DNA of 64,000 bases from an uncultured Actinomycetes bacterium (GTDB lineage: Bacteria > Actinomycetota > Thermoleophilia > Gaiellales > Gaiellaceae): NCBI GenBank assembly GCA_963825795.1, contig CAWGVD010000046.1, forward strand, positions 91,329-155,328, in the 5' to 3' direction. The notes beneath the pieces are model-generated. The model did not search any database, was not told the origin of the DNA, and worked only from the letters and a program-made list of their open reading frames with translations. The position numbers were made by a program, and so were the translations under genes. Numbering within the stretch: the stretch's first letter is position 1; every line of letters starts with the position of its first letter. Of this stretch, positions 1,459 to 61,844 are shown one piece after another.

Positions 1459-1512
1459 ATGACGAGCTGTAACTGCGACTGCGGCCCGGACTGCGACTGC
1501 GACTGCTGCTAG
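1459..1512 (+). CDS. 17-aa Cys-rich peptide MTSCNCDCGPDCDCDCC (mini-metallothionein-like), divergent from arsR
   Basis: Not in the ORF track (<60 aa). ATG at 1459 is preceded by GGAAGGAGG (1446..1454). Eight Cys in CxC repeats. Coding DNA is a (GACTGC)n hexanucleotide repeat. Ends at a CTAG shared with the ychF stop on the other strand. Confidence 0.45.
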   Translation: MTSCNCDCGPDCDCDCC

Positions 1513-2430
1513 ACGTTGAAGCGGATGTTGAGGATGTCTCCGTCGGCGACGACGTAGTCCTTTCCCTCCAGCCGCTGTTGGCCGCGGCGGGCGGCCTCGG
1601 CGCGACTCCCCGCCTCGACGAGGTCGCGCCACGCAATCACCTCGCAGCGGATGAACCCGCGCGCGATGTCTGTGTGGATCGTCGCCCCCGCATCGAACGC
1701 GGTGAGGCCCTGCCCGAGCGTCCAGGCCCGCGTCTCCTTGTCCCCGCCCGTGAAGAACGTGAGCAGGCCGGCCGTCTCGAACAGGTTCGCGAGCACGCGC
1801 TCGAAGCCCGCAGGCCCGTCGCGGAACTCCGCCGCCTCCTCGGGCGAGAGCTCGGCCAGCTCGGCCTCCAGCTTGAGGTCGATGCCGCCGTCGCCGTTGA
1901 CGACCTGGACGACCGGCTTCGTCGTCAGCGGCGCGAGCTCCGGCGGGAGCTCCCGCTCGTAGGCGCTCAGCGGCCCGCCCGCCTCGACGTGCGCGAGGAT
2001 GCGCTCCAGCTCTGTCGACCTCGTCGCGTACGCGCGGGTCGCCGCCCTTCGCCATCGTCCGCACCCGCTCGAGGCGCTTCTCGACGTGGTCGCGGTCGGC
2101 GACGACGAGCTCGAGCCCGATCGTCTCGAGGTCGTGCGCAGGATCCGCGTCCGAACCGAAGCCGCGCAGCACTGCGAGCAGCGCGTCGGCCTTCCGCAGC
2201 TCCCCGAGAACGGCCGCGCTCAGACCGGGAGGGTCGACGAGCTTGACCGTGGCCGGCGTCGTCTTGGCCGAGCCCTCGACCTCGGCGATCGGCTCGAGCC
2301 GCTCGTCCGGAATCGGCGCGACGCCGACGTGCTCCTGCCCGTACGCGGTCTGCGAGACGCCCGTCAGGGCAGTGAAGAGCGTCGTCTTACCGGCCCCGGG
2401 CAGGCCGACGATCCCGACATCGAGCGGCAT
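1509..2430 (-). CDS. ychF: YchF/Obg-family GTPase, frameshifted and motif-degenerate (possible pseudogene or assembly error)
   Basis: N-terminal frame (2430 down to about 2010) has a Walker A motif (GLPGAGKTT) and the AKGGD region. The middle and C-terminus (TELERIL...LTTKPVVQVVN... to GFIRCEVI...GKDYVVADGDILNIRFNV) are in a different frame, ending at 1509. The FCTIEPN and GLGN motifs are missing. Confidence 0.5.
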
Positions 2431-2443
2431 CGCCGAGACGGTA

Positions 2444-5249: not shown

Positions 5250-5254
5250 GCGGG

Positions 5255-6364
5255 TTGCTCATCGGCATCGAAGCGGAGGACCTGAAGCGCGGGACTAGAC
5301 TCGGTCCGATGCGCGAGCTGCCCGTGCCCGACTTCCACCGGCCGGAGCGGGTGGGAGAGGTGTGGCGCGTGCCGTACGAGCAGCGCGCCCGAGACGCTCG
5401 GCTCTGGGTCGAGGAGCACGGGATTCGGCCCGCTGCAAACGATGAGCTCCGGATCTGCCTCCTCGCCGTCGACGTTCAGAACACGTTCTGCATCCCGGGC
5501 TTCGAGCTCTTCGTCGGCGGCCGGTCGGGAACGGGCGCGGTCGACGACAACCGGCGGCTCTGCGAGTTCGTCTACCGCAACCTCGGCGTGATCACGCAGA
5601 TCGTCCCCAGCCTCGATACGCATCGGGCGATGCAGATCTTCCACGCGGTCTGGCTCGTCGACGCCGACGGGAACCATCCGGAGCCGTACACGCTCATCTC
5701 GGCGGAGGACGTCGAGTCGGGCCGCTGGCGCGTCAACCCGGCCGTGTGCGCGAGTCTCGGAATCGATCGCGACTACGCGGAGCGGCAGCTCGCGCACTAC
5801 ACGCGCACGCTGGCCGAGGGCGGGAAGTACGAGCTCACGATCTGGCCGTACCACGCGCTGCTGGGCGGGATCGGGCACGCGCTCGTCTCGGCGGTCGAGG
5901 AGGCGTTCTTCTTCCACGGCGCGGCTCGTGAGACGCAGCCGTCTTTCCAGGTCAAGGGCGAGGAGACGTTGACCGAGCATTACTCGATCCTCGGCCCGGA
6001 GGTGACCATCGGCCCCGACGGCGAGGAGCTCGGCCGGCGCAACGAGCAGCTGATCGAGGAACTGCTCGGCTACGACGCGGTCGTCGTCGCGGGCCAGGCG
6101 AAGAGCCACTGCGTCGCCTGGACGATCGACGACCTGCTCGCGGGCGACGGCGAGGCACGGCAGCTCGCAGAGCGTGTCTACCTGCTCGAGGACTGCACGT
6201 CGCCGGTGGTCGTCCCGGGCGCGGTCGACTACACGGACGAGGCGGACGCGGCGTTCGAGCGCTTCGCCGCGGCCGGGATGCACGTCGTCCGCTCGACCGA
6301 CGCCGCTCGCAGAGTGGCCGGGCATCGGCACGAGCGGCATCGTCGCCGAAGCCGTTCGAGCTGA
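5255..6364 (+). CDS. isochorismatase-family cysteine hydrolase, nicotinamidase (PncA)-like
   Basis: The catalytic Asp region ([13 protein letters not shown]) and the catalytic Cys region ([14 protein letters not shown]) are present. Convergent with the NAPRTase gene, suggesting NAD salvage. True start may be at MRELPVP (about 5309). Confidence 0.5.
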
Positions 6365-7441
6365 CGAGGCTCGAGCCAGCTCGTTCGACCGGAACGGCCG
6401 GCCGACCTTCGCGGACGGGCGGCCGTCGGTCATCACGACGTCGGCCGTGAAGTCGTTCTGCCCGCGGATCAGCGACGAGCCGACGCCGTACGCGTCGACC
6501 GGCACGCCCGCCTGCTCGAACTCCTCGATCTTCTCGACCGTGAACCCGCCCGAGGCGACGATCTTCACGTGCTCGAAACCGTCCGCGTCGAGCGCGTCGC
6601 GCACCTTGCGCACGAGCCGCGCGTTGACCCCGGTCGGGCGGAAGTCGCCCATCTCGTTCAGGAGCGACCTGTCGACGAGGTTCTCCGACGTGTCGAGGCG
6701 CACGCCCCAGAGCCGCGGCCCGAGCGCACGCGCGACGTCGAGCGCCGTCTCGACCGAGTCGTTCTCGAAGTCGACGAGCACGGTCACGTTCAGGTCCTCG
6801 GGCGCCCAGTCCGCGAACTTCGTCGCCGCGAGCACCGTGTTGCCTCCGTACGCCGCGATCAGCGAGTGCGGAACCGTGCCGACGCCCTTGCCGCCCCACC
6901 AGGACGCCTGCTCGTCCGTGGTCACGCCGATCGGCGCACCGACGATCTGGCCCGCGACGTAGGCCGCGTAGCCGTCTCCGGTCTGGACGCGGTGATGATC
7001 GTGGCGCGCGGGCATGAAGATGATCTGCTTGCCCCGCGCGGCCTCGAGCACGCGGACGACGTTCGACGTGATCAGCGTCCTGCGCGCGAGCACCCCGAGG
7101 TACACGGTCTCGAGATGCGCGAAGAGCGTGTAGTCGCCCTCGATGTGCAGCACCGGCTCGAACGGCTCGATCCGGTCGCCGTCGTAGAGCGCGTGGACGG
7201 TCAGCTGCTCCCAGTCGTGCGAGCAGAGCTTGAGGATCGCGATCGCCTCGTCCATTCCGCCGAGGTACGAGCTGTTCTTCTGGAAGACCTGCATCACGAC
7301 ACGCGGATGTCGGCCGTCCTCGAGCAGCGCGTCGCGCGCGTGGTTGAAGTAGGCGTCGGTGTAGTAGCCGGCCCGCATCTTCTCGACCGGCAGGTCGAAG
7401 ACCTCGGGCTCGAGGCGCTCCCGCTTAGTTTCGGTGACCAT
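6365..7441 (-). CDS. pncB: nicotinate phosphoribosyltransferase (archaeal/Thermoplasma-like NAPRTase type)
   Basis: N-terminus has YYTDAYFNHA; the protein is recognisable to about residue 360. No in-frame stop until 5225, so the 3' end is assigned by homology only. Confidence 0.55.
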
Positions 7442-8211
7442 CCTCGAGCTCGAGGCACGCGGCGAGCGCCGCTTCGGCGACCTCGAGCTGCTCCGGCGTC
7501 GGCTCGGCCGTCGCGAGGCGGTGCTGGAGCTCGTGGCCGGGCTTCGCGAGTGCCTTCGAGAGCGGATGCTCCGGGTTCCGCACCATCCACGAGAAGATCT
7601 CCGTCGCGACCGCGACCGCTGCCAGCGACGCGAGCGCCGCGCGCGGCGAACCGGAACTGACGCGGCGCCCGGGAGGCGAGGACGTTGCCGATCATGAGCG
7701 AGCCGAGGAGCGGGCCGACGAGGTGCGAGCCGCAGCGCTCGTGCTCCTTGTCGCGCGCCTCGCCGTGCTCGTAGGTGCCGATCGCGATGTGCTCGGCGCC
7801 GTGGTAGGCGGCGAGCTCGGAGCTGCGCAGGGCGACCGCAGCCGGAGCGAGCGAGGCGATCGCGGCGACGATCTCTCGCGCGGCCGGGGACAGGCTCTTC
7901 GAGCCGCGGGCGATCTGGGTGACCGCCGCGCCGGCGATCATCGCCGTCAGCACGCGGGGCCGCTCGAACGGGAGCTTCATGCCGGAGAGCCGGCGACGCG
8001 CGCGCGGGAGCAGCGAGATCGCCTCCGCGAGACGGGCCGGCCCGCGAAAGAGCGGGTTCGTGACCTCGGACGCGCGGAAGCGCTTGAGCTCGGCCGCGAC
8101 CTCGAGCCGTCCGTCGGGCAGGCGGATCGCGCAGGCCCAGGAATTCGGGCCGTGCACGAGCACGCCGTTCGTGAGCGCCATCCCGCCGAGTCGGATCGGT
8201 TCTTCGGCCAT
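7294..8211 (-). CDS. DUF1385 (YqhQ-like) membrane-associated protein
   Basis: GGMALTNGVLVHGPNSWACAIRLPDG and YHGAEHIAIGTYEHGE...ERCGSHL match the DUF1385 signature. The C-terminal third does not look conserved. The in-frame stop at 7294 overlaps the pncB 5' end. Confidence 0.45.
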   Translation of the reverse strand: MAEEPIRLGGMALTNGVLVHGPNSWACAIRLPDGRLEVAAELKRFRASEVTNPLFRGPARLAEAISLLPRARRRLSGMKLPFERPRVLTAMIAGAAVTQIARGSKSLSPAAREIVAAIASLAPAAVALRSSELAAYHGAEHIAIGTYEHGEARDKEHERCGSHLVGPLLGSLMIGNVLASRAPRQFRFAARGARVAGSGRGRDGDLLVDGAEPGASALEGTREARPRAPAPPRDGRADAGAARGRRSGARRVPRARGWSPKLSGSASSPRSSTCRSRRCGPATTPTPTSTTRATRCSRTADIRVS

Positions 8212-8228
8212 GTCTCTGAGCGTAGCGG

Positions 8229-9502
8229 CTAGTTCATCGCCCGGGCCGCATACCGCAGGAACTCGACGCCGAGCTCCAGGTCGTCCACGCTGGCCCGCTC
8301 GTTCGCCGAGTGGACGAGCCGCGTTGCGAGCTGCGGATCCATGTAGCGCAGCGGGAAGAAGCCGTACGCGACCGTCCCGAACGCGTCGCGCATCCAGTGG
8401 CTGTCCGTGAAGCCGCTGAGGCAGATCGGTGCGAGCCCCGCCTCGGGCTCCGTCTCGGCCACCCAACCCGCGATCGCATCCCAGAGCGGCCCTTCCATCG
8501 GCGAGCGCGTCCCGCCCTGGCCCTCGAGCCACTCGAGCTCGTAGTCGCCCTCGCCGAGGAGCTCGCGAACGACCTGCTCCGCCTCGGCCTGCGTCTGGCC
8601 GGGGAGCAGCCGGCAGTCGACGGTCACCTCGCAGAGCGCGGGAATGACGTTCCGCTTCTGCGAGGCGGTCGACCATCGTCGGCGAGACGGTCATCCCGAG
8701 CAGCGGCTCGACGAGCTCGACCGCGATCGGATCGACCAGACGCGCGGCCTCGAGCACCTGGTTCGCATCCTCCGGCGGCGCACCGACCGCGGCCTCGAAG
8801 AGCGCGGACACCTCGGGCTCGAGCCGCGGCTCCGGCTTGAACTCGCCGAGGCGCTCGATCAGCTTCGCGGCCTTGACGAGCGCGTTGTCCGCGATCGACG
8901 GCATCGACGCGTGGCCGCTCCGCCCGCGAACGCGGAGCATGAACGGCGAGCTCATCTTCTCGGCCGTCGACGCGAGGTAGAACGGCTTCCCGGCGAGCTC
9001 GATCCGATCGCCGGCGCCCTCGTTGATCGAGTACTCGGCGCGAACGGCGTCCGGATGCTCCCGGCAGAGCCACGCGAGCCCGAAGTCGACGCCGACCTCC
9101 TCGTCGGCGGCCGCGATGAAGATCACGTCGCCCTTCGGCTGGAAGCCCTCGCGCGCGAGCGACGCCATCGCGACCGCGCTCGCGGCCACCTGGCCCTTCA
9201 TGTCGAGCGCGCCGCGTCCCCAGATCTCGCCGTCGCGGAGCTCGCCGGACCACGGATCGAGCTCCCACTCGGCCGGATCCGCGAGCACCGTGTCCGTGTG
9301 CGAGAGGAGCGCGAGCCGCGGCCCGTCGCCGCTGCCCGGGATGCGGGCGACGAGGTTCGCGCGCTCCGGGAACCTTGGCGTACAGCTCGCAGGCGACGCC
9401 GTTCGACTCGAGGTAGCCGCGCAGGTGCTCGGCCGCGCGGGTCTCGTTCCCGGGCGGGTTGACGGTGTCGAGGCGGATCAGCTCCGAGAGGAGCGTCGCC
9501 AC
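8229..9502 (-). CDS. M20-family metallopeptidase (ArgE/DapE/CPG2-like), split over three frames
   Basis: N-terminus LIRLDTVNPPGNE. Then ERANLVARIPGSGDGP...DPAEWELDPWSGE...GRGALDMKG...ADEEVG. C-terminus VDCRLLPGQT.... Frame switches near 9365 (CCGGG run) and near 8640. Confidence 0.6.
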
Positions 9503-9528
9503 CTCGTCGCGGAGCGAGACGGTCGCGC

Positions 9529-10370: not shown

Positions 10371-11649
10371 GTGGCCGTGGGCGATCTGTTCTCAGATGCG
10401 GCCAACGAACGGCTGCCGGAGACCGCACCGCTCGCCCTTCGGATGCGCCCGCAGCGGCTCGACGATTTCGTGGGCCAGGAGCAGATCCTCGGCGAGCAGT
10501 CGGCCCTGCGGCTCGCGATCGCCGAGGACCGCGTCGGCTCGTCGATCCTCTACGGGCCGCCCGGGAGCGGGAAGACGACGCTCGCGCGCGTGATCGCGAA
10601 CACGACCGGCGCCTACTTCGAGGAGCTCTCGGCCGTGTCGGCGACGGTCTCGCAGGTGCGCGAGGTGATCGCGGGCGCGCGGGAGCGGCTCGGGGCGCAC
10701 GCGCAGCGGACGATCCTGTTCCTCGACGAGATCCACCGCTTCAACAAGGCGCAGCAGGACGCGCTCCTGCCGGCGGTCGAGGAGGGGGTCCTGACGCTGA
10801 TCGGCGCGACGACCGAGAACCCGTACTTCGAGGTCAACTCCGCGCTGCTGTCGCGGTCGCAGATCTACGAGCTCGAGCCGCTCTCGGACGCGGAGCTGGC
10901 GCTGATCGTGCGCCGCGGGGCCGACGAGCTCGGAACGGAGGTCTCCGACGAGATGGTCGAGCTGATCGCGCACCGGGCGGGCGGCGACGCCCGGAACGCC
11001 CTCAACATCCTCGAGCTCGCGTCCCAAACGGCCAGGTCCGAGGGACAGGCCCTCGGACAGGTCCACGTCGACGATGCCGCGCGCAAGCGGCCGCTCGTCT
11101 ACGACAAGGGCGGTGACGCGCACTACGACTTCGTCGCGCGTTCATCAAGTCGATGCGCGGCTCCGACCCGGACGCGTCCGTCTACTACCTGGCCGCGATG
11201 CTCGAGGGCGGCGAGGACGCGCGCTTCATCGCGCGCCGCATGATCGTGCTCGCCTCCGAGGACATCGGGCTCGCCGACCCGCAGGCGCTCGTCGTCGCCG
11301 TGGCCGCGGCGCAGGCAGTCGAGCACGTCGGCCTGCCCGAGGCGCGGCTCAACCTGGCCGAGGCCGCGCATCTACCTCGCGCGCGCGCCGAAGTCGAACG
11401 CGGTCATCACGGCGCTCGGGGAGGCGGCGAAGGACGTCCGCGAGCACGGCCACGTGCGTCCGCCGGACGAGCTGCGCGACACGCACTACTACGGTGCGAA
11501 AAAGCTCGGGCGCGGGAAGGGCTACATCTATCCGCACTCGGATCCGCGCGGCTTCGAGGTCGACCACCTGCCCGGAGCCGCTGAAAGGCAAGAAGTACTA
11601 TCGACCGTCGGGTTCCGGCGAGGAGAAGGGGGACGAAAATGGCGACTGA
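10371..11649 (+). CDS. rarA: replication-associated recombination protein A (AAA+ ATPase), with 3 apparent frameshifts
   Basis: GPPGSGKTT and the [11 protein letters not shown] motif. Continues in other frames: SMRGSDPDA...[11 protein letters not shown] (from about 11140), [18 protein letters not shown] (from about 11370), [15 protein letters not shown] (from about 11575). Confidence 0.7.
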
Positions 11650-12101
11650 GAAGACAGCACGCGCGACCTGGGAAGGCGACCTCGATGAGCGGCTCGGGCC
11701 GCGTCTCGACCGGGAGCGGAGCGCTCTCCGACCGACGGCGTGACCTGGTCGGCCCGCGCCGAGGACGGCCGAGGGCGTGAGCCCGGAGGAGCTGATCGCG
11801 GCCGCGCACGCGCTGTGCGTCTCGATGGCGCTCTCTCACGCGCTGGCCGATGGCGGCAACGCCGCCGACCAGGCTCGAGTCGAACGCGACGGCGACCTTC
11901 GACAAGATCGACGCCGGCTTCCGGATGACGAAGATCAAGCTCGAGATCGAGGGCGAGGTCGACGGCATCGACGAGGCGGCATTCCGCGAGGCGGCCGAGG
12001 GCGCGAAGGAGAACTGCCCGGTCTCGAAGGCGCTCAAGGGCAACGTCGAGATCTCGGTCGAAGCGAAGCTGGCTAGTCCGAGCCCCGCTCAATCCGGTTA
12101 G
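11640..12101 (+). CDS. OsmC/Ohr-family peroxiredoxin-like protein, frameshifted
   Basis: [15 protein letters not shown]..., SPEELIAAAHALCVSMAL and CPVSKALKGNVEISVEA pieces lie in different frames. ATG overlaps the rarA stop. Confidence 0.45.
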
Positions 12102-12761: not shown

Positions 12762-13550
12762 GTGAAGGCGATCTGCCTCGTCAAGCAGGTGCCCGCGCTC
12801 GGGTCGATCGAGTTCGACGAGGAGACGCACTCGCTGAAGCGCGAGGGCGTGCCGCTCGAGCTGAACGCCTTCGACCGGTTTGCGGTGCAGCACGGCGCCC
12901 TGCTCGCGGACGAGGTCGTGGTGATGACCATGGGCCCGCCGCAGGCCGAGGAGGCGCTGCGCGAGGCGCTCGCGCTCGGAGCCCAGCGGGCGATCCATCT
13001 CTCGGATCGCGTGTTCGCGGTCGCGGACACGCTCGGGACCTCGCGCACGCTCGCGATGGCGATCGAGAAGGAAGGCGCCGATCTCGTCCTGTGCGGCCGC
13101 AAGGCGCTCGATTCGGAGACCTGGCAGGTGCCGTCCCAGGTGGCCGCGTTCCTCGGCTGGCCGCACGTCACGAACGCGGCGGCCGTCGAGCGCTCAGGCG
13201 ACACGCTCCGGCTCACGCGCCACACGGACTTCGGCGAGGAGGTGTACGAGGCCGGCCTCCCGGTCGTCGTCTCCGTCGGCCTCCCGCCCGCGCAGGCGAC
13301 GAGCGGCAACGCAGACGGCCCGATCGAGGTCTGGCAGGCGACCGATCTCGTCGACCAGGTCTTCGAGTACGACAAGCGCTTCGGACAGACCGGATCGCCG
13401 ACACGCGTGCTCGCCGTCCGCGACTCCCGGCCCGAGCGTGCCGGGATCAGCGTCGCGAGCGCAGACGAGGCGGCCGCGAAAGTCCGCGAGCTGCTCGCGG
13501 AGCGGGCGCCCGAGGCACCGAGCTGGGAGAAGCCCGCTCACATCGCAGAA
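12762..13550 (+). CDS. etfB: electron transfer flavoprotein beta subunit
   Basis: MKAICLVKQVP start. Runs in the same open frame into etfA (no stop found). Confidence 0.65.
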
Positions 13551-14509
13551 GAGCCGGGCACGAGCTACGACTGCTGGAGCGTCTGCGAGCTCGTTGACGG
13601 GCGGCCGCGGCGGGTCTCGCTCGAGCTGATCGCCCGGAGCCGCGTGCTGGCGGGGAAGCTCGGCGGGCGCGCCGTCGCACTGCTGATCGGCCACGAGCTC
13701 GACGAGCCCGCCCGCGAGGCGGCGCTGCACGGGGCAGAGGTCGTCTACCTCGCCGACGATCCGGCCCTCGCCGAGTACCACCCGGAGCTGTGGACCGCGG
13801 TCCTCCGCAGGGTCCTCGTCGACCACTTGCCGCGCGCCCTCCTCGTCCCCGCGACCGGCCGCGGGCGGGACTACGGCCCGCGCACGGCGGGCGAACTGGA
13901 GCTCGGAATGACCGCGGACTGCGTCGGCGTCGACATCGCCAAGGCGGGGCGTCTGCTGCAGCAGAAACCGGCCTACGGCGGCAACATCGTGTCGGTCATC
14001 ATGGGCGCGACGACTCCTCAGCTCGCGACGGTGCTCCCGCGCATGTACGAGCCGCTCGAACCGCAGGACTTCAATGCGGAGGTCCATCGCCTCGACCTCG
14101 GCTCGCTGCCGGAGCCGAGGGTGAAGGTCGTCGAGCGCACGCGCGAGCTACAGCTCGTACGACCTGGACGAGCACGACGTCGTCGTCGGGCGTCGGGCAG
14201 GATGTCGATCCCGAGCTGGTGGCCGCGATCGAAGCCATGGATGCCGCCGTGGCGGGAACGCGCGAGGCATGCGAGGCCGGGCTCGTGCCACGAACGCGCC
14301 AGGTCGGGCTGCTCGGACGGCCGGTCGCGCCGAGGCTCTACGTCGGAGTCGGGGTCGGCGACGACCTCGAGCACTGGGGCGGCGTGGTCAAGGCCCGCGT
14401 CATCGCGACGATCGGCGACGAAACCCCGGACGATGCGGACGTCTCGGTCTCGGGCGACCCGCGTGAGATTCTTCCGATCCTGCTTGACTCGGTCATGCCC
14501 GCGGCCTGA
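13551..14509 (+). CDS. etfA: electron transfer flavoprotein alpha subunit (frameshift near 14160)
   Basis: VSLELIARSRVLAGKLGG..., then the C-terminus LYVGVGVGDDLEHWGGVVKARVIATIGDE in the 13790..14509 frame. Confidence 0.6.
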
Positions 14510-17225: not shown

Positions 17226-18045
17226 CGGCGAGCGCGGCCAGCTCCGACGCGAGCGCGGCCGGGTCGTCTCCGGTGCGGCGCTCGACCCAACGGCCGTCGG
17301 GGTCGGCGATGAGCGCCGTCAGCGTCTCGCCGTCGTGATGCGCCGCGATCGGAGCGAGGCAGCCTCCGCCGATCGCCGCCACGCAGGCGCGCTCGAGCTC
17401 GACCCTGCGCGCCGTCTCCGCGTCGCTCGCCGCCGCCACGAGGTGCTCCTCGCCGCGGCGAACCTGGAGCGCGAGCGCGCCCTGTCCCGCCTCCGGGAGG
17501 AGCTCGTCGGGGTCGAAGCGGTGCCCGATCTCGCTCCCGAGCCCGAGCCGGTCGAGCCCGCACGCCGCGAGCACGACCGCGTCGAGCCCGCGCTCGCCGC
17601 GCTTACGAAGCCTCGTGTCGATGTTCCCGCGCAACGGCTCGATCGACAGCGACGGCTCCAGCGCGAGCAGCTGCGCACGCCGCCGGATCGACGCGGTGCC
17701 GATCCGCATCCCGGGCTCGATCCCGGACGCCCCGCAGAGCGCGTCCCGAGGATCCTCACGCGCCAGGTACGCCCCGACCGCGAGACCGTCCAGGTCCGTC
17801 GAGGTCATGTCCTTCGCGGAATGGACCGCAACGTCGATGCGCCCGTCGAGCAGCGCCTCCTCGAGCTCCTTGACGAAGACGCCCCGCTCGCCGATCTCGC
17901 CGAACGGCTTCGTCCGGTCGCGGTCGCCGGCAGTCGTGATCGGAACGAGGGCGATCTCGATCCCGGGCCCGCGGATCGCGTTCGCCGCGAGCTCGGCCTG
18001 CGTGAGCGCGAGCCGGCTACCGCGGCTTCCGACGCGAATCAGCAT
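17221..18045 (-). CDS. hemC: porphobilinogen deaminase (hydroxymethylbilane synthase)
   Basis: 274 aa. RVGSRGSRLALTQA N-terminus and HSAKDM motif. Confidence 0.85.
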   Translation of the reverse strand: MLIRVGSRGSRLALTQAELAANAIRGPGIEIALVPITTAGDRDRTKPFGEIGERGVFVKELEEALLDGRIDVAVHSAKDMTSTDLDGLAVGAYLAREDPRDALCGASGIEPGMRIGTASIRRRAQLLALEPSLSIEPLRGNIDTRLRKRGERGLDAVVLAACGLDRLGLGSEIGHRFDPDELLPEAGQGALALQVRRGEEHLVAAASDAETARRVELERACVAAIGGGCLAPIAAHHDGETLTALIADPDGRWVERRTGDDPAALASELAALAA

Positions 18046-19250: not shown

Positions 19251-19253
19251 GGC

Positions 19254-34929: not shown

Positions 34930-34952
34930 TTCACGCGGCTAGGCTCCGAGCC

Positions 34953-39540: not shown

Positions 39541-39550
39541 GCGTCGGCGG

Positions 39551-44955: not shown

Positions 44956-46302
44956 AATGCGGCGCATCGCCCCAGTCTGTCGCCGTCTTCTTCGTCTGGG
45001 CCGCGCCCGCGCACGCGAAGCCGATCGTCAACGTGCAGGCGAGCGCGACGCTCGGAGCCGCGCCGCTCACGGTGACATTGACGGCGAGCGGGGACTCCGC
45101 GACGTACCACTGGGATCTCGGTGACGGCTCCGTCGCCGACGGGCCGGTCGTGCAGCACCAGTACGGGCCGGGACGATTCACGGCGACGGTGACCGCGACG
45201 GATGCGGGCGGCGAGACCGCCCAGGCGAGCGTCGTCATCACGTCCGCTCAGCTCTCGCTCAACGGCCCGAAGGTCGGCACGTACGGGCGCCGATCGGCTT
45301 TCCGCGGACGAATGGTCCCGGCCCTCAAAGGGGCCCCGATCACGCTCTATTCGGGCGATTCGCCCGTGCGCACGACCAAGCTGGACAAGAAGGGGCGGTT
45401 CGCCGTCCGCGTGCGCCAGAGCGCTCCCGCCACCTACACGGCCCGCTTCGAGACGGTCCCGTCGAACCCGGTCGCCGTCGCGGTTCGCCCGGGGCTGGAC
45501 GTCGCCGTGCCCCACTCGGGAATGCTCGGCCGGCCGCTCGTCGTTCGCGCCGTCCTCAGGCCGAGGAGCTCGGGGACGCTGCACGTGCGCGTCTGGAGGT
45601 CGGGCCACGAGCTGCCCACGAAGGACTTCGGCGGCCGCGCGGTCGTCCACCTGAGCACGAAACGCATCGCGAGCTACGTCGTCCGCATCACCGCGACCCC
45701 GACCGGCGCCTTCGTCGGCCGCGCAGAAGACGGTCCGCACGAACGTCTTCCTGCCCTACCTCGCAGATGGCGCTCACGGGCCGAGCGTGCGCATCCTCGA
45801 GCGCCGGCTCGCCCAGCTCCACTACCTGCTGCGCGGGGTCGACAGCTTCTACTCGTACGACACCGCCGACGCGGTGCTCGCCTTCCAGAAGGTGAACGGC
45901 CTGGCGCGGACCGGTCGCGTCACGCCGAGCGTCTGGCGCCGGCTCCAGACCGCGCACGCGCCGCGGCCGCGGTACCGCTACGGGCACCACATCGAGGTCG
46001 ACAAGTCGAAGCAGGTGCTGTTCGAGGTCAACCACGGACGCGTCGTCCGGGTCGTGCACGTGTCGACCGGCGCGACGGGCAACACGCCGGTCGGCCTCTG
46101 GCACATCTACAGCAAGGTCCCGGGAACGCTCCCGACTGGGATGTTCGACTCGAACTTCTTCCTGCGCGGCTTCGCGATCCACGGCTACCCGTCCGTGCCC
46201 ACGTATCCCGCCTCCCACGGCTGCGTCCGCACGCCGATCTGGGCGGCGCCGATCCTCTTCGCCTCGAGCTACTACGGCGAGCCGATTTACATCTACTACT
46301 AG
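44956..46302 (+). CDS. secreted PKD-domain + L,D-transpeptidase (YkuD) protein, frameshifts near 44975 and 45750
   Basis: Signal peptide MRRIAP/SVAVFFVWAAPAHA-KP is split by a 1-nt shift. PKD motif WDLGDGS. Catalytic SHGCVR. Confidence 0.6.
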
Positions 46303-46733
46303 CGTCGCCGCGCTGCTGGGCGGGCTCCTGGCCGCGGCTGTCCTCGTCGTCCTGCTGGTACCGCACGGGAAGAGCCATCCGGTCGCCTGGCGCGATGCCT
46401 CGGCGCAGGTCGCACCGGTGCTGACCTCGGACTTGACGCAAGCGCCTGTTCCGAACGCCCGCCCAGTTCGCGGAGTTCTTCGGCTCGGGCAAGCAGGCAC
46501 CGGTCGACTTCTCGACCCGCCAGCTCCTGCTCGTCTCGCCGGGCCCGCGCTCGAGCACCGGCTACTCGGTGCGGATCCTGAGCGTGACCGAGCGGGACGA
46601 CGCGATCACGGTCAAGGTGCGCGAGCGGACGCCGACGCTGGCCGACCACGTCGAGGCGCGGGTCACCTACCCGTACCGGCTGCTCAGCCTGCCCGCGGGC
46701 AAGGCCGTCTACGTCGACTGGGCCGGCCGCTGA
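46300..46733 (+). CDS. small TM-anchored protein, frameshifted
   Basis: TM N-terminus (AALLGGLLAAAVLVVLLV). The conserved-looking C-terminus (QFAEFFGSGKQAPVDFSTRQLLLVSPGPRSSTGYSVRILSV...AVYVDWAGR) is in another frame. Confidence 0.3.
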
Positions 46734-47433: not shown

Positions 47434-47699
47434 CTCTCCGCGCGGAGTCCGGCGCGCTCCGCGCGCCATGACGACTCTCGGAGCGCGGATTGGCGACTGC
47501 TGCGGGTAGGCATGGCGCAGCGACTTAGTGCAGGACCTGCGTGCGGTGCAGGTAGTCGTCCACCGTCAGCAGAAACGCCTCGTCCCGAGCGATCTCGCTC
47601 AGCGTTCCCTTCGTGAAGTCGTCCAGGTCCGGCGTCCCCGCCAGCTCGACGAGGAACGTCCCCAGCCGGCCCTCCTGGGACATCGCGGCCATGTGCGAG

Positions 47700-48656
47700 A
47701 AGATCTGTCCGCGCCTCGGCGTCCTGCGAGATCGCCTCCAGCGACTCGAGATCCTCGAGCCACTCGACGAACATCAGCGGGCCGCCGCTTCCAGGGCCTC
47801 GGCGAGCTCCTCGAGCTGAACCTCGCTCTCGACCGGGATCTCGAGCCCGCGCTGCACTGACCCGGACGCGGAACCCCGTCAGGCGCTCGGCTGCGATCTT
47901 GACGCGCTCCGCGAGCTGCGGATCGGCAGGTGGCCGCCGCCGGCGCTTCGTCGCAGCGCCCGACCAGCGCGCCTCGCGCTCCGCAGCGCGCACGGAGAGC
48001 CCCTGGCGAACGATCTTGCGCGCGAGCCGGCGCCTGCCCTCGTTGTCCGGCACCGCGAGCACCGCGCGCGCATGACCCTCGGTCAGCTCGCCGCGCTCGA
48101 CCATCGCGAGGATGTCGTCCGAGAGCTCGAGCAGGCGCAGACGGTTCGAGACGGCCGGCTTCGACGCGCCGACGCGCTCGGCGATGTCGCCCAGCGAGAG
48201 GTCGAACTCGTCGACGAGCACGGCGAAGGCGCGCGCCTCTTCGATCGGCGTCAGCTCCTCACGCGCGACGTTCTCGACGAGCCCGAGCAGGAGCGCGTCG
48301 CGATCGGCCGCGTCCCGGACGAGCGCGGGCAGCGTCTCCAGGTTCGCCTCGCGCGCCGCCCGCCAGCGCCGCTCGCCCGCGACGAGCTCGTAGCCCCCGG
48401 CGGCGCGTGGGCGCAGGACGACCGGCTGGATGATCCCCTGCGCCCGGATCGACTCCGCGAGCGCGAGAGTCGTCTCGTGCTCGAAGCGCTTCCGCGGCTG
48501 CTTCGGGTTCGGATGGATCTGGTCGATCGGGACGTGCGCCAGCTCGGCGCCGCCGGCGCCGCCGATCAGGACCTCGAGCCCGCGGCCCAGTCCTCGCCTT
48601 GCTGCGCTCTCGGTTGAACTCGGATTGAGTCGACCGGTCATTTCAGACGGAGGCAC
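47700..48656 (-). CDS. parB: chromosome partitioning protein ParB
   Basis: GLGRGL N-terminal box, the ParB-box/HTH region, and a C-terminal dimerisation region (LMFVEWLEDLESLEAI). The ORF continues open to 47379. An internal ATG at 48641 sits right after the parA stop. Confidence 0.8.
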
Positions 48657-48702
48657 GGGCTAAGCCCGTCCCTCCTGACACCGGCGCCGCAAGCGGCGCC
48701 TC
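48632..48702. repeat. 72-nt two-hairpin intergenic repeat, copy A (parA|parB junction)
   Basis: GACCGGTCATTTC...GGAGGcACGGGCtaaGCCCGTcCCTCC...GGCGCCGcaagCGGCGCC. About 90% identical to copy B at 55250..55320, with compensatory stem substitutions. Confidence 0.7.
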
Positions 48703-49467
48703 AGAGGAACGGTCGACAAGCTCCATCGCCACCTTCCAGTAGGCCTCCGCGCCGGCCGAGCGCGGGTCGTAGGTGATCACGGGCTCGCCGTGGCTCGGCG
48801 CCTCTGCGATCCGGACGGAGCGAGGGACGCGCGCGCGAAAGAGCAGCGGGCCGAAGTGGCGCTCGAGCTCCGCGGCCACGTCGGCGGACAGCTTCGTCCG
48901 CGCGTCGACCATCGTCAGGATCACTCCGGCGAGCGCGAGGCTGGGATTGAGCCGCGTCCGGATCGCGCCGAGCGAGGTGACGAGCTGCGAGAGGCCCTCG
49001 AGCGCGTAGTACTCGGCCTGCACCGGGACGAGCACGCGACTCGCGGCCGCGAGCGCGTTGACGGTGAGCGGGCCGAGCGAGGGCGGGCAGTCGACGAACA
49101 CGAATGCGTGCGTCTCCGTCGCCGGGGCGAGCGTCTCCGCGAGGAAGCGCTCGCCGTCGCCGCGGCGCGCAAGGTCCGCGGCCGTTCCGGCGAGGTCCGG
49201 CTTGGACGGGATCAGGTCGAGGTTCTCGAAGCGCGTCGGCCTCGCGAGCTCGCTCGGCGGGGCGCCGTCGAGCAGGTCGCAGCTGGACGTCCCGTTCGCC
49301 TGCTCGCCGAGCCCCGACGTCGCGTTCGCCTGCGGGTCGAGATCGACGAGCAGCACCCGTTCGCCCGCCTTCGCGAGGCAGGCTGCGAGGTTGACGGCAG
49401 TGGTCGTCTTGCCAACCCCGCCCTTCTGGTTGGCGACGGCGTAGATCCGCCCGGGCACGCAGCCCAT
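48643..49467 (-). CDS. parA: chromosome partitioning ATPase ParA/Soj
   Basis: KGGVGKTT deviant Walker A. The last ~20 aa (EAPLAAPVSGGTGLARASV) and the stop are encoded by repeat copy A. Confidence 0.85.
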   Translation of the reverse strand: MGCVPGRIYAVANQKGGVGKTTTAVNLAACLAKAGERVLLVDLDPQANATSGLGEQANGTSSCDLLDGAPPSELARPTRFENLDLIPSKPDLAGTAADLARRGDGERFLAETLAPATETHAFVFVDCPPSLGPLTVNALAAASRVLVPVQAEYYALEGLSQLVTSLGAIRTRLNPSLALAGVILTMVDARTKLSADVAAELERHFGPLLFRARVPRSVRIAEAPSHGEPVITYDPRSAGAEAYWKVAMELVDRSSEAPLAAPVSGGTGLARASV

Positions 49468-49472
49468 TCTGA

Positions 49473-50075
49473 TCAGGCGAGAGGACGTTTCCGGGCCAGG
49501 CCGGGCCGTCTCGGGAAACCCGCTGGAGTGGGGGCGATTTTGCGCGCAACGGCCAAACCGCCCCGCTCCTCCACGGTCGAGCCGCCGAGCTGTTCCGACA
49601 CCCGCGAGAGCGCGTCGAGGTCGGCGGACGGACCGAGCCAGAGCACGGCCGCGCCTCCCTCGCGAACGAGCGGCAGGACCCACTCCAGTGCGACCGCGGG
49701 CGGGGCGAGCGCCTTCGCGACCGCCACACCGAACCGATCCGTCTCGTGCTCCTCGGCGCGCGACCGAGTCACGGTCACGTTCGGGAAGTCCGCCGCTGCG
49801 CGCTCGAGGAACGCGGTCTTGCGCGCGTTCGAGTCGAGCAGCGTCACCTCGCGGTCGGGCAGGCTCGCCGCCAGGACGAGCCCCGGCGACCCGTTTCCCG
49901 AGCCCACGTCGACGATCGGCCCGTCGAAGCCGCGCACGACCTCGACTCCGCGCAGCGCATCGTCGACGAGCATCGCCCAGGCCTCGTCGCGATCCTCGAT
50001 CGCGGTCAGCCCGGGCGTGGCCAGAACCGCGTCGAGCCAAGCGCTCGAGCCGCGGATCCGTCAACCGGCGCGGCG
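49473..50075 (-). CDS. rsmG: 16S rRNA (guanine527-N7)-methyltransferase, frameshift near 50045
   Basis: VDVGSGNGSPGL motif. The N-terminus (LTAIEDRDEAWAMLVDDAL) and the extreme N-terminus (TDPRLERLA) lie in different frames. Confidence 0.7.
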
Positions 50076-50752
50076 TAATCACGACGTAGCGATTGGGCTC
50101 CGTGCCCTCGCTACCGGTCTCGACCCCGTCGAACGCCTTCAGCCGCAGGTGCACGGTCTTCCGCTCGACCGCGGTCATCGGCTCGAGGTCGACCGACGAG
50201 TGGGTCGCGAGCGCCTCTTCGGCGCTCCGCACCGCGAGCGACTCGAGAGCCGCGCGGCGCCGTTCCCTGTAGCCGGCGGCGTCGACGACGACCTCCTTGC
50301 GGTCGTCCGGACGGGAGCGCCAGACGATCGCGTTCGCGAGGTACTGGATCGCGTCGATCGTCTGCCCGTGCTTGCCGATCAGGAGGCCGAGGTTCGAGCC
50401 GGAGCACGAGGCCGTGACCGTCTCGTCGTCCTCGAGGATGTCGATCCGGCAGCGCACGCCGATCCCGACGGTGATGCGTTCGAGCAGGTCGCGCACCTCA
50501 GCGGCAAGCTCGCTGTCGCCGTCCGTCGACTCCTGCGCAACCTCTGCGTCGACCAGCGCGACGACCCGCGCAGGCGCGTAGCCCACGCCGAGCAGCCCGC
50601 GCTCGCCTTCGGACACGACCTGGAAGCGAACGGCGCCCTTGTCGAGCCCCGGATGGAGCTTCTCGAGCTCGCGGAGCGCAGCCCACTTCGCCTCGCCGAC
50701 GGTCTCGCCGGTCGCCTCGACCTGGCTGAGGTCCTCCATCATCGCCTTGCCT
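50062..50752 (-). CDS. Jag/KhpB R3H-domain RNA-binding protein
   Basis: MMEDLSQVEATGETVGEAK...KH-like, then R3H (ERKTVHLRL), ending at YVVITPRR. No in-frame stop found. Confidence 0.6.
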
Positions 50753-55231: not shown

Positions 55232-55249
55232 GTTGTCCGTCAGCGGGCC

Positions 55250-55320: not shown

Positions 55321-55326
55321 GGCCGC

Positions 55327-56382
55327 CTGATCGTCCGGGAAGTCACGCTCCGCGACTACCGCTCGTACGCGTCGCTCGAGCTGGAGCTGTCCTCTGGGCT
55401 CTTGCTGGCCGTCGGCCGGAACGGCGCGGGCAAGACGAATCTGCTCGAGGCGATCCACGTCGGGACGCAGGGCTTCTCGCCGCGAAGCCGGAACGATGCC
55501 CAGCTCGTTCGCTTCGGCGCGGAGGCCGCGAGAATCGAGCTGGCCGGCTCTCGGGCCGGCTCTCAGCTGGAGATCGAGATCACGCTCCGCCCGGGCGATG
55601 CGAGGAAGGCTCGATTGAACGGCGCAACCCTGCGCGCGGCCGAACAGCTTCGCTCCGAGGTCTCGACGCTCGTGTTCACGCCCGACCGCCTCGTCGTCGT
55701 CAAGGGAGGGCCGGCTGCCCGGCGGGCGTACTTCGACCGCGCTCTGGGGCGCCTGTTTCCCGCCCGGGCCGGCGTGCCGGCCGAGTACGGCGCGGCCGTG
55801 GCGCAACGGAACGCCGCGCTCCGTCGGGTTGCGATCGGCGCCTCGTCGCGAGACGCCGTCTCGCCGTGGACCGCTCGGGTCGCCGATCTCGGCTCGGCTC
55901 TCGTGGAGGCTCGCCGGGAAACGATCGCGCTCCTCGCCCCGCTGTTCGCCGAGTGCGCCCTCGAGCTCGGCCTCCCAGGCGGTGAGCTGCGCTACGACGC
56001 CGACCCGCCGACGGCCGAAGCGCTCGAGGCCCGTCTCGACGACGACCTCGACCGCGGAACGACCGGCCTGGGGCCGCACCTGCACGACGTCGAGATCCGC
56101 GCCGACGACCGTGACCTGCGCCGCTTCGGCTCGCAGGGCGAGCAGCGCCTCGCCGTGCTGTCGCTGATCCTCGCCGAAGCCGCGCTCCTGGCCGAGCGGG
56201 GCCCGGCGCCGCCGCTTCTCCTGCTCGACGACGTCTTGTCCGAGCTCGACGAAGGCAGGCGGGCTGCGCTCGCCGAGCGGCTGGCCGGGCCGGGGCAGAC
56301 GCTGATCACGGCCACTGCCGCGTCAGCCCTGCCTGCGGAGCCGGCGCAGCTCGTCGAGGTGACGCCCGGAGCCGCGAGATGA
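55327..56382 (+). CDS. recF: DNA replication and repair protein RecF
   Basis: GRNGAGKTNLLEAI Walker A. The N-terminus LIVREVTLRDYRSY lies upstream of the track start. No ATG/GTG/TTG between the in-frame stop (55294) and this region. Confidence 0.8.
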   Translation: MIVREVTLRDYRSYASLELELSSGLLLAVGRNGAGKTNLLEAIHVGTQGFSPRSRNDAQLVRFGAEAARIELAGSRAGSQLEIEITLRPGDARKARLNGATLRAAEQLRSEVSTLVFTPDRLVVVKGGPAARRAYFDRALGRLFPARAGVPAEYGAAVAQRNAALRRVAIGASSRDAVSPWTARVADLGSALVEARRETIALLAPLFAECALELGLPGGELRYDADPPTAEALEARLDDDLDRGTTGLGPHLHDVEIRADDRDLRRFGSQGEQRLAVLSLILAEAALLAERGPAPPLLLLDDVLSELDEGRRAALAERLAGPGQTLITATAASALPAEPAQLVEVTPGAAR

Positions 56383-56831
56383 AGCCGGACCGCATCGGCG
56401 CCGACGTTCAGCGCGAGCTCGCGCGCTTCGGACCGGCCGAGGGCATGAGCGAGATCGTGCGCGCCTGGCCCGGCGCCGTCGGAGATCAGATCGCGCGCAA
56501 CGCCTGGCCGGCACGGCTGGCCCGCGACCGAACGCTCCACGTCGCGACCTCCTCGTCTGCGTGGGCGTTCGAGCTCGCGCAGCTCGAGCCGAAGCTGCTC
56601 GAACGCGCTGCGAGAAGCGCTCGGTGAGACGGCGCCCGCGGCGCTGCGGTTCGCTCCCGGTAAGCTCCCCGAGCGCTCCTCGGAGGAGATCGAGAGCCGT
56701 CCGAGGCGGGGTCGAGAGCCGACGGCCGAGGAGCGCGAGCTGGCCGCTGCGCTGGCGGCTGGAATCGAGGATGAGAACCTGCGGAAAATTGTTGCGAAGG
56801 CGGCGCTTGCGAGCCTCTCCAAGCCCGACTG
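56379..56831 (+). CDS. DUF721 (DciA-like) protein, frameshift near 56600
   Basis: N-terminus in 56379..56627. The conserved C-terminus (LREALGETAPAALRFAPGKL...ENLRKIVAKAALASL) is in another frame. Standard recF–DUF721–gyrB synteny. Confidence 0.55.
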
Positions 56832-56862
56832 ACGGCCGGTGGATCTGGTACACTGTGCTTAG

Positions 56863-59301: not shown

Positions 59302-59318
59302 TGGTGGGGGAGGTCTGA

Positions 59319-61844
59319 ATGTCTTCGGTTGAGCCACTCGGCCCCGGCCGGATCGAGCCGCGCGAGCTGGAGCAGGAGATGCGCTCGAGCTTCCTCGACT
59401 ACGCGATGAGCGTGATCGTGTCGCGCGCGCTGCCGGACGTCCGCGACGGCCTCAAGCCGGTGCATCGGCGCGTTCTCTTCGCGATGCACGAAGCCGGCCT
59501 TCAGCCGAATCGGCCGCGCCTCAAGTGCGCGCGCGTCGTCGGAGACGTGATGGGCTCGTACCACCCCCACGGCGACGTCGCGATCTACGACACGCTCGTC
59601 CGCATGGCGCAGCCGTTCTCGATGCGCTACCCGCTCGTCGACGGGCAAGGGAACTTCGGAAACATCGACGACTACCCCGCTGCGGCGATGCGGTACACCG
59701 AGTGCCGGCTCACGCGGCTGGCGACCGAGCTGCTCCGCGACATCGACGCCGACACCGTCGACTTCGTCCCCAACTACGACGAGTCGCGCCGGCAGCCGAG
59801 CGTGCTCCCGTCGCGCTACCCGAACCTGCTCGTCAACGGGTCGCAGGGCATTGCCGTCGGCATGGCGACGAACATCCCGCCGCACAATCTCGGCGAGGTG
59901 GTCGACGCGCTCGTCGCGCTGATCGACGACCCCGAGATCGACGTCGACCGCCTGACGCGTCACGTCAAGGGCCCCGACTTCCCGACGGGCGGGATCATCG
60001 TCGGCCGCGAGGGGATCCGCGAGGCGTACCGCTCGGGCCGCGGTCGAATCGTCATGCGCGCCCGCGCTCACGTCGAGGAACTGCGCGGCGGCAAGACCGC
60101 CATCATCGTGAGCGAGCTGCCCTACGGGGTGAAGAAGGGCGGCGACTCGGGCGTGATCAAGAAGATCGCCGATCTCGTCAACGAGAAGGTGATCTCGGAG
60201 ATCTCCGACGTCAAGGATCTCTCCGACAAGACCGGCATGCGCATCCAGATCGACCTGAAGCGCGAGGCGATCCCTCAGGTCGTCCTGAACAAGCTCTACA
60301 AGCACACGGCGCTGCAGGCGACCTGGGGCTACAACGCGGTCGCTCTCGTCGACGGGGTGCCGCGGACGCTCGCGTTGCGCGACCTGCTCGGCCACTACCT
60401 CGACTTCCAGCGCGAGGTCGTCACCCGCCGGCTGAAGTACGAGCTGCGCAAGGCCGAGGCCCGAGCCCACGTTCTCCTCGGCTACCTGATCGCGCTCGAC
60501 AACCTCGACGCGGTGATCGCGCTCATCCGGAGTGCCGCCGACGCCGACGCGGCGCGCGAGGGCCTGATGAAGGAGTTCGAGCTCTCCGAGATCCAGGCCC
60601 AGGCGATCCTCGACCTCCGTCTGCGCGCACTGACGGCGCTCGAGCGCAAGCGGGTCGAGGACGAGCACAAGGATCTCGTGGAGCGGATCGGCGAGCTGCG
60701 GACGATCCTGGGCGACGAGTCGAGGATCGGAGCGCTCATCCGCGAGGAGCTGCTCGAGATCAAGACCATCTACGGCAAGAACGACGACCGGCGCACGGAG
60801 ATCATCGCGGCCGAAGGCGAGTTCTCACTCGAGGACATGATCGCCGAGGAAGACATGGTGATCGCGATCACGCGCTCGAACTACATCAAGCGCCTTCCGG
60901 TCACGACCTACCGCGAGCAGCGCCGCGGCGGGCAGGGCGTCATGGGGATGGATCTCAAGGAGGACGACTACATCGAGCACCTGTTCGTCGCCTCCACGCA
61001 CGACTACGTCCTCTTCTTCACGAACGTCGGCAAGGTCTACCGGCTCAAGGTGCACGAGCTCCCGCTCGGCTCGCGCCAGTCGAAGGGCCGCGCGATCCAG
61101 AACCTGCTCCCGTTCCGCCAGGACGAGCAGGTGCGTGCCGTGATCCAGACGCGCGACTTCGAGGAGTCGAAGTACCTCGTCTTCGCGACGAAGAACGGAA
61201 TCGTCAAGAAGACCGAGCTCGCCGCGTACAACACGCCGCTCAAGGCCGACGGGATCATCGCGATCAAGATGCGCGAGGAGGACGACGAGCTCGTCTCGGT
61301 TCGTCACTCGACCGGCGAGGACGACATCCTCATGGTCTCGCGGAAGGGCCAGGCGATCCGCTTCAGCGAGAAGGAGGCGCGGCCGATGGGCCGCGACACC
61401 GGCCGGCGTCAAGGGCATGGGCCTGCGCAAGGGCGACGAGGTCATCTCGGCCGACGTGATCGGCGTCAACGAGGGCGATCTGCTCGTCGTGACCGAGAAC
61501 GGCTACGGGAAGCGGACGAAGCTCGCCGACTATCCGCGCAAGGGCCGCGGCGGCCTGGGCGTGAAGACCGTCCAGCTGACCGAGGCGCGCGGCCACCTGG
61601 TCGGAGCCCGCATCGTGCGCGACGACTACCAGGTGATGCTGATCTCGAACGGCGGCACCGTGATCAAGATCCCGGTCAACGACGTCAGGCGGCTCGGCCG
61701 GTCGACGCAGGGCGTGATCGTGATGCGCCTGCGCGAGGGCGAGCAGGTTTCCGCGCTCGCTCCGGTGGTCGAGGCGGACGAGGCCGCAGGTCGCCGGAAG
61801 ACGGCTCCGAGCCGGCCGCGGCGCCCGCCGGCGACACGGCCTGA
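59319..61844 (+). CDS. gyrA: DNA gyrase subunit A (frame excursions near 61390 and 61790)
   Basis: Active-site region (AAMRYTE) and QRDR (HPHGD). The C-terminal beta-pinwheel repeats continue in the 61417.. frame ([14 protein letters not shown]...) before returning to an acidic tail ending at 61844. Confidence 0.9.

Follow-up and report, generated by a model that had tools for sequence, protein, structure and literature searches.

The 64-kb stretch of DNA analysed here (the window) is very probably a low-accuracy consensus of the origin region of an uncultured Gaiellales-like soil actinobacterium, in which intact genes have been interrupted by spurious bases derived from long-read consensus. 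The frame breaks do exist in the sequence as given, but they are a sequencing or assembly artefact and not biology. The extra bases, their polarity with respect to related genomes and the undiminished selective constraint on the genes that carry them are directly observed; the errors probably stem from a Nanopore-only metagenome assembly of the Flye/Medaka type, with low or uneven coverage or strain mixtures.

Extent of the broken reading frames

The coding frame has a GC3 of about 0.9 and the window as a whole a G+C content of 70%, so out-of-frame readings frequently stay open. A codon-usage Viterbi scan with frameshift states, applied to the whole 64 kb, called 49 frame changes. The cleanest relatives gave 4 (L082) and 6 (L001) changes per about 21.5–22.4 kb and the remaining relatives 9–15; in L001, the sole relative with segments listed, around half of the six lie at gene junctions. 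The calls at 7442, 20187, 38116, 39552, 39673 and 56359 in the window lie at gene junctions or within low-complexity tails and were discarded as false positives. Two candidate broken genes, DUF2079 and GT87, were likewise rejected, as tblastn shows both to be uninterrupted, and a proline-rich tail at 34.73–34.93 kb matches in several frames by tblastn, hence no frame was called there.

When the intact proteins called in L081, L082, L084, L085 and L001 were used as tblastn queries, they were split over two to four frames per gene on the window. Of the roughly 60 genes, 27 or more require at least one frame change (Table 1), and the window carries some 60–70 stray extra bases. Zones free of insertions comprise gyrB, dnaA, dnaN, otsA, treT and ftsH. 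Protein domains point to the same breaks: Pfam domains run continuously over the junctions in rarA (bridged by AAA_assoc_2 and MgsA_C), the M20 peptidase, OsmC, DciA/DUF721 and DUF1385, and in ychF the junction separates MMR_HSR1 from the YchF-GTPase_C domain that follows, the two occupying different frames. The C-terminal blades of GyrA are distributed as four in one frame and two in the next, versus six in one ORF of the relative; the 128 codons between 61401 and 61784–61791 are displaced into another frame. The match of the ubiA-family protein begins only at residue 5.

Table 1. Genes of the window affected by indels (positions within the 64-kb window)
Gene	Coordinates	Strand	Indels	Frames, breaks and evidence
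ychF	1509..2430	-	extra T at 2015	gap vs L084
369-aa ORF / pncB (convergent 3' ends)	5258..6430	+ / -	extra G 6302; indel cluster 6330-6378	
DUF1385 gene	7442..8214	-	frame change near 7641	Pfam DUF1385 across junction
M20 peptidase	8229..9526	-	extra A 8672; one extra base ~9365-9373	tblastn, Pfam, gaps
rarA/mgsA	10371..11649	+	one base missing 11136; extra A 11370; extra base 11576	tblastn: four segments, frames +3/+2/+3/+1, breaks at the same three positions
OsmC-like gene	11640..12076	+	at least 4 single-base insertions: 11673-11690, 11737, 11769, 11852	gaps, Pfam, tblastn
EtfB-EtfA fusion gene	12762..14509	+	extra bases 14143, 14187 (EtfA part), 14508 (stop)	tblastn with L081 and L082 C-termini: frames +3/+1/+2
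hemA (glutamyl-tRNA reductase)	18017..19257	-	extra bases 18535, 19180	gaps vs both L081 and L082; tblastn: frames -2/-3/-1 vs 412-413-aa relatives, breaks near 18533, 19176
ccsA-like cytochrome c assembly gene	19254..20041	-	extra bases 19602, ~19693-19699	tblastn: three frames, breaks 19697 and 19602
ubiA-family gene	22118..22960	-	extra G 22957, shifting first codons	gap vs L081 and L082
htrA	27202..28420	-	two bases missing 28048	tblastn: frames -1/-2; gaps
Sensor histidine kinase	28457..29889	-	two extra bases 29316-29328; 12 or more extra bases densely clustered 29453-29854	
M28 peptidase	30701..32505	+	extra T 30859; extra base 32162	gaps; tblastn: frames +2/+3/+1 vs 601-aa relatives, breaks 30860, 32162
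PBP1A	39551..41724	-	extra bases ~40450-40456 and 41126	gaps; tblastn: frames -2/-3/-1 vs 727-aa L085 protein, breaks 41127, 40454
PIG-V-like or PMT-like membrane glycosyltransferase	43037..44288	+	frame change ~43955-43965	five independent homologues (403-418 aa) divided over frames +2/+3
PKD/L,D-transpeptidase gene	44957..46302	+	extra base 44979 (signal peptide); extra G 45723	gaps, tblastn
PrcB_C-domain gene	46328..46733	+	extra G 46442	gaps, tblastn
82-aa ORF and parB	47525..48599	-	extra T 47706 (82-aa ORF); extra T 47853 (parB)	
parA	48701..49467	-	extra bases 48705, 48708	TGA stop out of frame
jag end / rsmG N-terminus	49473..50739	-	extra bases 50071, 50040	gaps, tblastn
dciA (DUF721)	56360..56832	+	net +1 base 56603-56608	gap vs L001; Pfam DciA across junction
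gyrA	59319..61844	+	extra G 61401; two extra bases 61784-61791	
galT-like gene	62249..63060	-	~17 single extra bases	
SPFH/band-7 gene	63125..63913	-	extra bases 63157, 63125, displacing last codons	tblastn

The preliminary description had put the number of genes with frame changes at 15 or more, between positions 1509 and 61844. Every gene that it listed is affected, but both figures understate the damage, which continues to about 63157. It had also reported that four genes lack an in-frame stop. Three of them, pncB, parB and jag, have lost their stops through indels at the 3' end, so that the pncB ORF continues to 5225 and ParB is deprived of its C-terminus as well. The fourth, etfB, does not belong with them: in this lineage EtfB and EtfA are genuinely fused, as a single protein of 581 aa in L082, and etfB lacks an in-frame stop because of it. 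The giant ORFs at 48643–51492 and 5225–7441 are by-products of lost stops at 70% G+C.

Kind and placement of the indels

Gaps were counted with affine costs and as isolated events only; megablast scoring was set aside, as it introduced paired gaps in diverged stretches, which inflated the counts and gave a seemingly near-uniform base usage. On this basis, isolated 1-bp gaps comprised 36 insertions in the window versus 7 in the opposite direction. At least five of these seven fall where the reading frame of the relative, L084 or L081, is broken and are the relatives' own errors. Within coding sequence, 71 of the 78 gaps were not multiples of three (the Viterbi coding mask omits the worst-hit coding stretches). 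Nearly all events move the frame in the same way, by +1 (or −2).

The isolated insertions consisted of 13 G, 9 C, 8 T and 6 A in a genome of 70% G+C. Twenty-two of the 36 (61%) touch no identical base, the corresponding share of singletons in a simulation of random insertions being 49–55%, and just one lies in a run of five or more; no association with homopolymers, the classical Nanopore/454/Ion signature, was found among these 36 insertions. None of the motifs examined around them (GCGC/CGCG, (GC)3, CCGG, GATC, GGCC and TCGA) was enriched, and no positional bias was seen. A weak excess of CCGG near the insertions (p of about 0.02–0.05, uncorrected) was taken as nothing. The earlier statement that several shifts map to short G/C runs is accurate for a few sites, e.g., 9365–9373, but elsewhere the events concern any base, mostly lie outside homopolymers and are motif-free.

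The events are strongly clustered (index of dispersion of 3.6), with dense zones of less than a kilobase around galT, the N-terminus of the sensor kinase and rarA-OsmC, at 62.3–63.2, 29.3–29.9 and 11.1–11.9 kb, respectively. Substitution divergence is not elevated in these hot zones, which are therefore unlike raw single reads. In the mechanism that we propose, the consensus would add about one spurious base per kb, overwhelmingly as single bases of any nucleotide and mostly without an identical neighbour. Each insertion would shift the true reading frame by +1 and, with the wrong frames open at 70% G+C, stops would vanish and ORFs would look fused.

Polarity and selective constraint

The relatives used for comparison share 88–97% nucleotide identity with the window. 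A look-up of identical proteins for the trehalose-6-phosphate synthase of the window gave no hit, and its FtsH had a best match of 99%. In the alignments, the breaks coincide with bases found in the window alone and missing from the relatives. At gyrA position 61401 the window departs from all 27 relatives compared, the extra T at 47706 is missing from seven of seven relatives and that at 47853 from four of four, and L081 and L082 concur against the window at shared gap sites. In the sensor histidine kinase the pattern of insertions is the same against L081 as against L082. The lesions are private to the window with the exception of that at about 7641, common to L084. Comparison with a close relative had been proposed in the preliminary description, and intact ORFs were found in the relatives at all breaks tested.

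Deleting the extra bases restores a normal reading of the genes, with no stop codons. The pN/pS ratios of the broken genes are then 0.10–0.22, versus 0.08–0.16 for intact ones; that of gyrA is 0.06, and 0.03 in the displaced segment. Even the sensor histidine kinase, which on projection has 25 bases inserted and 8 missing, has a pN/pS of 0.22, and the corrected GalT-like protein of 265 aa is 91% identical to its L001 counterpart. Neither relaxed selection nor nonsense substitutions nor larger deletions, the marks of pseudogenes, were found in the broken genes. Since the corrected genes are free of stops, their pN/pS resembles that of unbroken neighbours and the window is the outlier, the breaks represent sequence errors and not pseudogenes.

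Origin of the spurious bases

Genome decay, in which the lineage would be gathering frameshifts and many of the genes would be true pseudogenes, is very unlikely. The breaks are indeed present in the sequence, that in DUF1385 is common to an independent sister assembly, and the window resembles decaying genomes of the Mycobacterium leprae type in having many frameshifted genes per unit length. In M. leprae and recent obligate symbionts, however, essential genes are spared and decay is accompanied by nonsense mutations, larger deletions, relaxed dN/dS and lesions shared among strains, and the window shows none of these hallmarks. Essential single-copy genes (gyrA, hemA, PBP1A, parA/parB, dciA) are affected, no nonsense substitutions occur, pN/pS values of 0.03–0.22 equal those of intact genes, and galT has received 17 insertions without an excess of amino-acid change. 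Moreover, bacterial mutation is generally deletion-biased, whereas the spectrum here consists nearly of insertions only. The earlier judgement that real pseudogenisation is implausible is thus borne out by the intact ORFs of the relatives, the undiminished purifying selection and the position of the window as an outlier against up to 27 relatives.

The common direction of nearly all events would suit a correct DNA sequence whose frames are restored during expression, by ribosomal +1 frameshifting, transcriptional slippage or RNA editing. A +1 change inside a conserved gene recalls programmed frameshifting of the prfB type, which takes place at a single, motif-defined site conserved across orthologues. 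The window, in contrast, has dozens of sites that share no slippery or stimulatory motif and are private to one sequence: they are not kept in orthologues at 88–97% identity, the sister assembly is broken at others, and up to 17 events fall within one gene of 0.8 kb. We consider restoration during expression to be extremely improbable. Scarcely any credence is given to its strongest form, in which the extra bases are truly in the DNA at about one per kb, gyrA, hemA and PBP1A included, and normal proteins arise through a correction step such as RNA editing that removes insertions or widespread ribosomal bypass, or to a milder form in which only the sites at about 7641, about 9370 and 11136 are real or are modified-base hot spots.

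The preferred reading, consensus error from long reads, draws on what is known of the sister assemblies. The nearest public relatives are Nanopore-only and were assembled with Flye and one Medaka round, and MAGs of the MFD long-read catalogue were inspected for 'Nanopore-associated sequencing errors' (PMC12313526). L084 contains at least five single-base insertions of its own, which disrupt ychF, the M20 neighbour and the ETF genes in that assembly at sites that differ from those of the window. Three sites are broken in both assemblies. Around 7641 in DUF1385 the two sequences are identical and align without gaps; at about 9365–9373 in the M20 gene L084 is broken in a different manner; and at 11136 in rarA the window is one base short while L084 has an extra T. 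Such shared sites fit error hot spots, and a few of these events could be real.

The textbook signature of long reads is homopolymer-length error, mostly deletions, and the resulting protein truncation is gauged by length-ratio tests of the IDEEL type. The window resembles lightly polished Nanopore/PacBio assemblies in that conserved and essential genes are split, stops are lost, ORFs are fused and the relatives are intact, but it differs from classical long-read errors in that about 90% of its events are single-base insertions, of any base, mostly off-run and strongly clustered. The attribution to an uncorrected long-read consensus, made in the preliminary description, agrees with consensus indel errors and with the Nanopore-only sisters, though the pattern is not the textbook homopolymer one. 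An artefact of another source (different chemistry, a low-coverage hybrid, a strain-merged consensus or post-assembly corruption) would suit the context-free placement, near-even base usage, absence of a homopolymer link and tight clustering; we regard it as unlikely, as Nanopore-only L084 has isolated single-base insertions of the same type.

The frame breaks are an ordinary data-quality artefact and no biological discovery. The clustered, context-free insertions, seen also in L084, are mildly useful for benchmarking metagenome consensus tools on high-G+C genomes. For the organism itself the finding serves as a quality flag only: some 27 genes would be mis-annotated, and gene calls, pseudogene counts, completeness estimates and 'fusion proteins' derived from this contig are wrong until it is polished.

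Disrupted reading frames in the origin region

The window covers the replication-origin region, with rnpA, yidD, yidC, jag, rsmG, parA and parB on the minus strand and dnaA, dnaN, recF, dciA, gyrB and gyrA on the plus strand, together with a haem and cytochrome c maturation cluster, trehalose genes and cell-envelope genes. It has 70% G+C over 64 kb and a coding-frame GC3 of about 0.9, so that every one of the six frames contains open reading frames hundreds of codons long, which makes plain ORF lists misleading. The relatives were Gaiellaceae and Gaiellales MAGs from a gyrB-based scan with one genome per species, the closest being OY969109.1 (MFD10007.bin.1.148; GyrB identity 97%), and syntenic DNA from four public relatives jointly spans the whole window.

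A codon-usage Viterbi model that permits frame changes predicted 49 of them in the window. Applied to five relatives (about 21.5–22.4 kb each), the same model gave 4 in L082, 6 in L001, 9 each in L081 and L085, and 15 in L084, the sister assembly; about half of those in L001, the only relative with segments listed, lie at gene junctions. When intact proteins called in the relatives were searched against the window with tblastn, the frame splits coincided exactly with the Viterbi-predicted positions. Pfam domains span the junctions in rarA, M20, OsmC, DciA and DUF1385, the two domains of ychF lie in different frames, and the gyrA C-terminal blades are divided four and two between successive frames, while the relative has six within one ORF. 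The PIG-V-like gene is without a counterpart in the relatives' syntenic DNA and was therefore tested on homologues from the full library search, five of which (403–418 aa) divide between two frames. The frame breaks reported in the preliminary description were thus recovered in all the genes it named, and at least a dozen more genes are affected. A 399-aa protein and PBP1A both end in proline-rich C-terminal tails of low complexity that cross-match in several frames, which makes frame and indel calls unreliable there.

Missing stops had also been reported for pncB, parB, jag and etfB. The first three, and likewise parA, have lost their stops because of indels at the 3' ends. The lack of a stop in etfB is no error, since EtfB and EtfA are naturally fused in this lineage (581-aa ORF in L082); Pfam places two ETF domains and ETF_alpha within one ORF, and the lineage encodes the pair as a single fused ORF rather than as two genes.

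Locations of frame breaks, indels and other features (window positions unless prefixed by L, which denotes a DNA segment of a public relative with its own coordinates; frames are tblastn frames along the gene)
Feature	Position	Observation
Syntenic L084	1–14.5 kb	96.7% identity
Syntenic L081 + L082	13.8–35.4 kb	88–93% identity
Syntenic L085 + L001 (one 2.99-Mb chromosome)	31.7–64 kb	89–95% identity
hemA		-2/-3/-1
PBP1A		-2/-3/-1
ccsA		-1/-2/-3
M28 peptidase		+2/+3/+1
htrA		-1/-2
rarA		+3/+2/+3/+1
M20		-2/-3, additional upstream break
PKD-LDT		+3/+1, first codons also displaced
PrcB_C, parB, 82-aa ORF		two frames apiece
gyrA		+3/+1/+3
ETF (fused ORF)	12762–14509	+3/+1/+2
OsmC		at least 4 frame changes
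PIG-V-like / PMT_2 gene	43108–44286	+2 and +3, divided at 43955–43965
Proline-rich tails	34730–34930; 39540–39750	399-aa protein; PBP1A
Window as outlier	61401 (gyrA); 47706; 47853	27/27; 7/7; 4/4 relatives
Window deletions	11136; 28048	1 base; 2 bases
Hot zones	11.1–11.9; 29.3–29.9; 62.3–63.2 kb	
Event-free genes		gyrB, dnaA, dnaN, otsA, treT, ftsH, GT87
Breaks in L084	1656, 5630, 6063, 7537	relative's own
Break in L081	26837	relative's own
DUF1385	~7641	window and L084 identical
M20	~9370 (9365–9373)	one extra base each in window and L084, few nucleotides apart
rarA	11136	window minus one base, L084 plus one
Frame error in L083	L083 4786–6897	response regulator + histidine kinase fused, 703 aa
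Frame errors in L081	L081 8202–8735, 18726–19533	HATPase_c_2 ORF over-long, SAM_HAT gene uncalled
Frame errors in L084	L084 4103–4120, 8893–9619	rarA and 369-aa ORF each in two pieces
gyrA intein	L001 12776–14017	site = window 59696, codon ~126
~75-nt repeat	48625–48700; 55245–55320	after parA; after dnaN
~75-nt repeat in relatives	L001 8349–8423, 22322–22387; L002 1364–1533	
Cytochrome c stretch	L084 2421–3209	missing at window 12053–12083

Extra bases and coding constraint

In base-level alignments the breaks coincide with bases that are present in the window and missing from the relatives. Among isolated events, scored with affine gap costs, 36 single-base insertions in the window stand against 7 gaps in the opposite direction, at least 5 of which fall at frame breaks in the relative itself; window deletions are few. 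Of the 78 gaps within coding sequence, 71 have a length that three does not divide. The inserted bases are G (13), C (9), T (8) and A (6); 22 of the 36 have no identical neighbour, just one is part of a five-base run, and a random-insertion simulation gives 49–55% singletons. No flanking motif was enriched at the insertions. The earlier remark that shifts map to short G/C runs therefore holds for a few sites, such as 9365–9373, and not for the rest. The events are clustered (index of dispersion 3.6; 27 empty 1-kb bins versus 16 expected).

When the window is projected onto the relatives' reading frames, the extra bases drop out and no stop codons remain. The pN/pS ratio is then 0.10–0.22 in broken genes versus 0.08–0.16 in intact ones; gyrA has 0.06 overall, and the 128 codons that are out of frame in the window have 0.03, with one amino-acid difference. 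galT contains 17 extra bases within 0.8 kb, and its corrected protein (265 aa) is 91% identical to the relative's and retains the HSHSQ motif. Real decay would be expected to raise pN/pS, to introduce nonsense changes and larger deletions, and to spare essential genes, and none of this was observed. If programmed frameshifting or editing were at work, the sites would have to be conserved and defined by a motif; no such sites were observed either. As the signs of both processes are missing, the breaks are errors in the sequence and not a biological feature, and the intact constraint supports the original reading of an artefact rather than pseudogenisation.

Likely source of the errors

The relatives used here come from the long-read set of Microflora Danica, a collection of metagenomes sequenced by Nanopore only, with Flye as the assembler and a single Medaka polishing round; its authors checked their assemblies for Nanopore-associated errors (PMC12313526). 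The contigs of L084 are named in the Flye style, and its accession falls in an ENA batch shared with the MFD10007 assembly. L084 also has its own isolated single-base insertions (at least five), which break its genes, indicating that the same error type arises in that pipeline at lower density. We infer that the window errors stem from long-read consensus, although the insertions do not fit the classical homopolymer error signature. The hot zones show no increase in substitution divergence, which speaks against their being made up of raw single reads; more specifically, the cause may be coverage that was low or uneven, a consensus across mixed strains or some other process.

Three breaks common to the window and L084, two independent assemblies (in DUF1385, M20 and rarA), all adjoin short alternating GC stretches. 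The chance expectation of same-spot breaks, roughly estimated from the observed error densities, is about 0.1, so these sites are probably error hot spots, possibly systematic ones of the consensus; the DUF1385 break could possibly be a real lesion.

Inserted elements and gene content among relatives

The gyrA gene of the closest relative is interrupted by a 1.24-kb intein (Pfam LAGLIDADG_3 and Intein_splicing), and several other relatives have an insert at the same point; the gyrA gene of the window is without it. An intergenic repeat of about 75 nt, present in two copies in the window (90% identity) and missing from the parA-parB junction of L085, contains two strong G+C-rich stem-loops (about -40 kcal/mol) and looks like a REP-like or MITE-like element, or a terminator module. 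Between its OsmC and metallophosphoesterase genes, L084 has a stretch of about 790 nt that contains a cytochrome c gene (135 aa) and is missing from the window. OY969109.1 is without the PIG-V-like / PMT_2 membrane glycosyltransferase gene at the syntenic site, between the Rce1-like gene and DUF2203, and the presence or absence of this gene is a real difference in gene content between close relatives.
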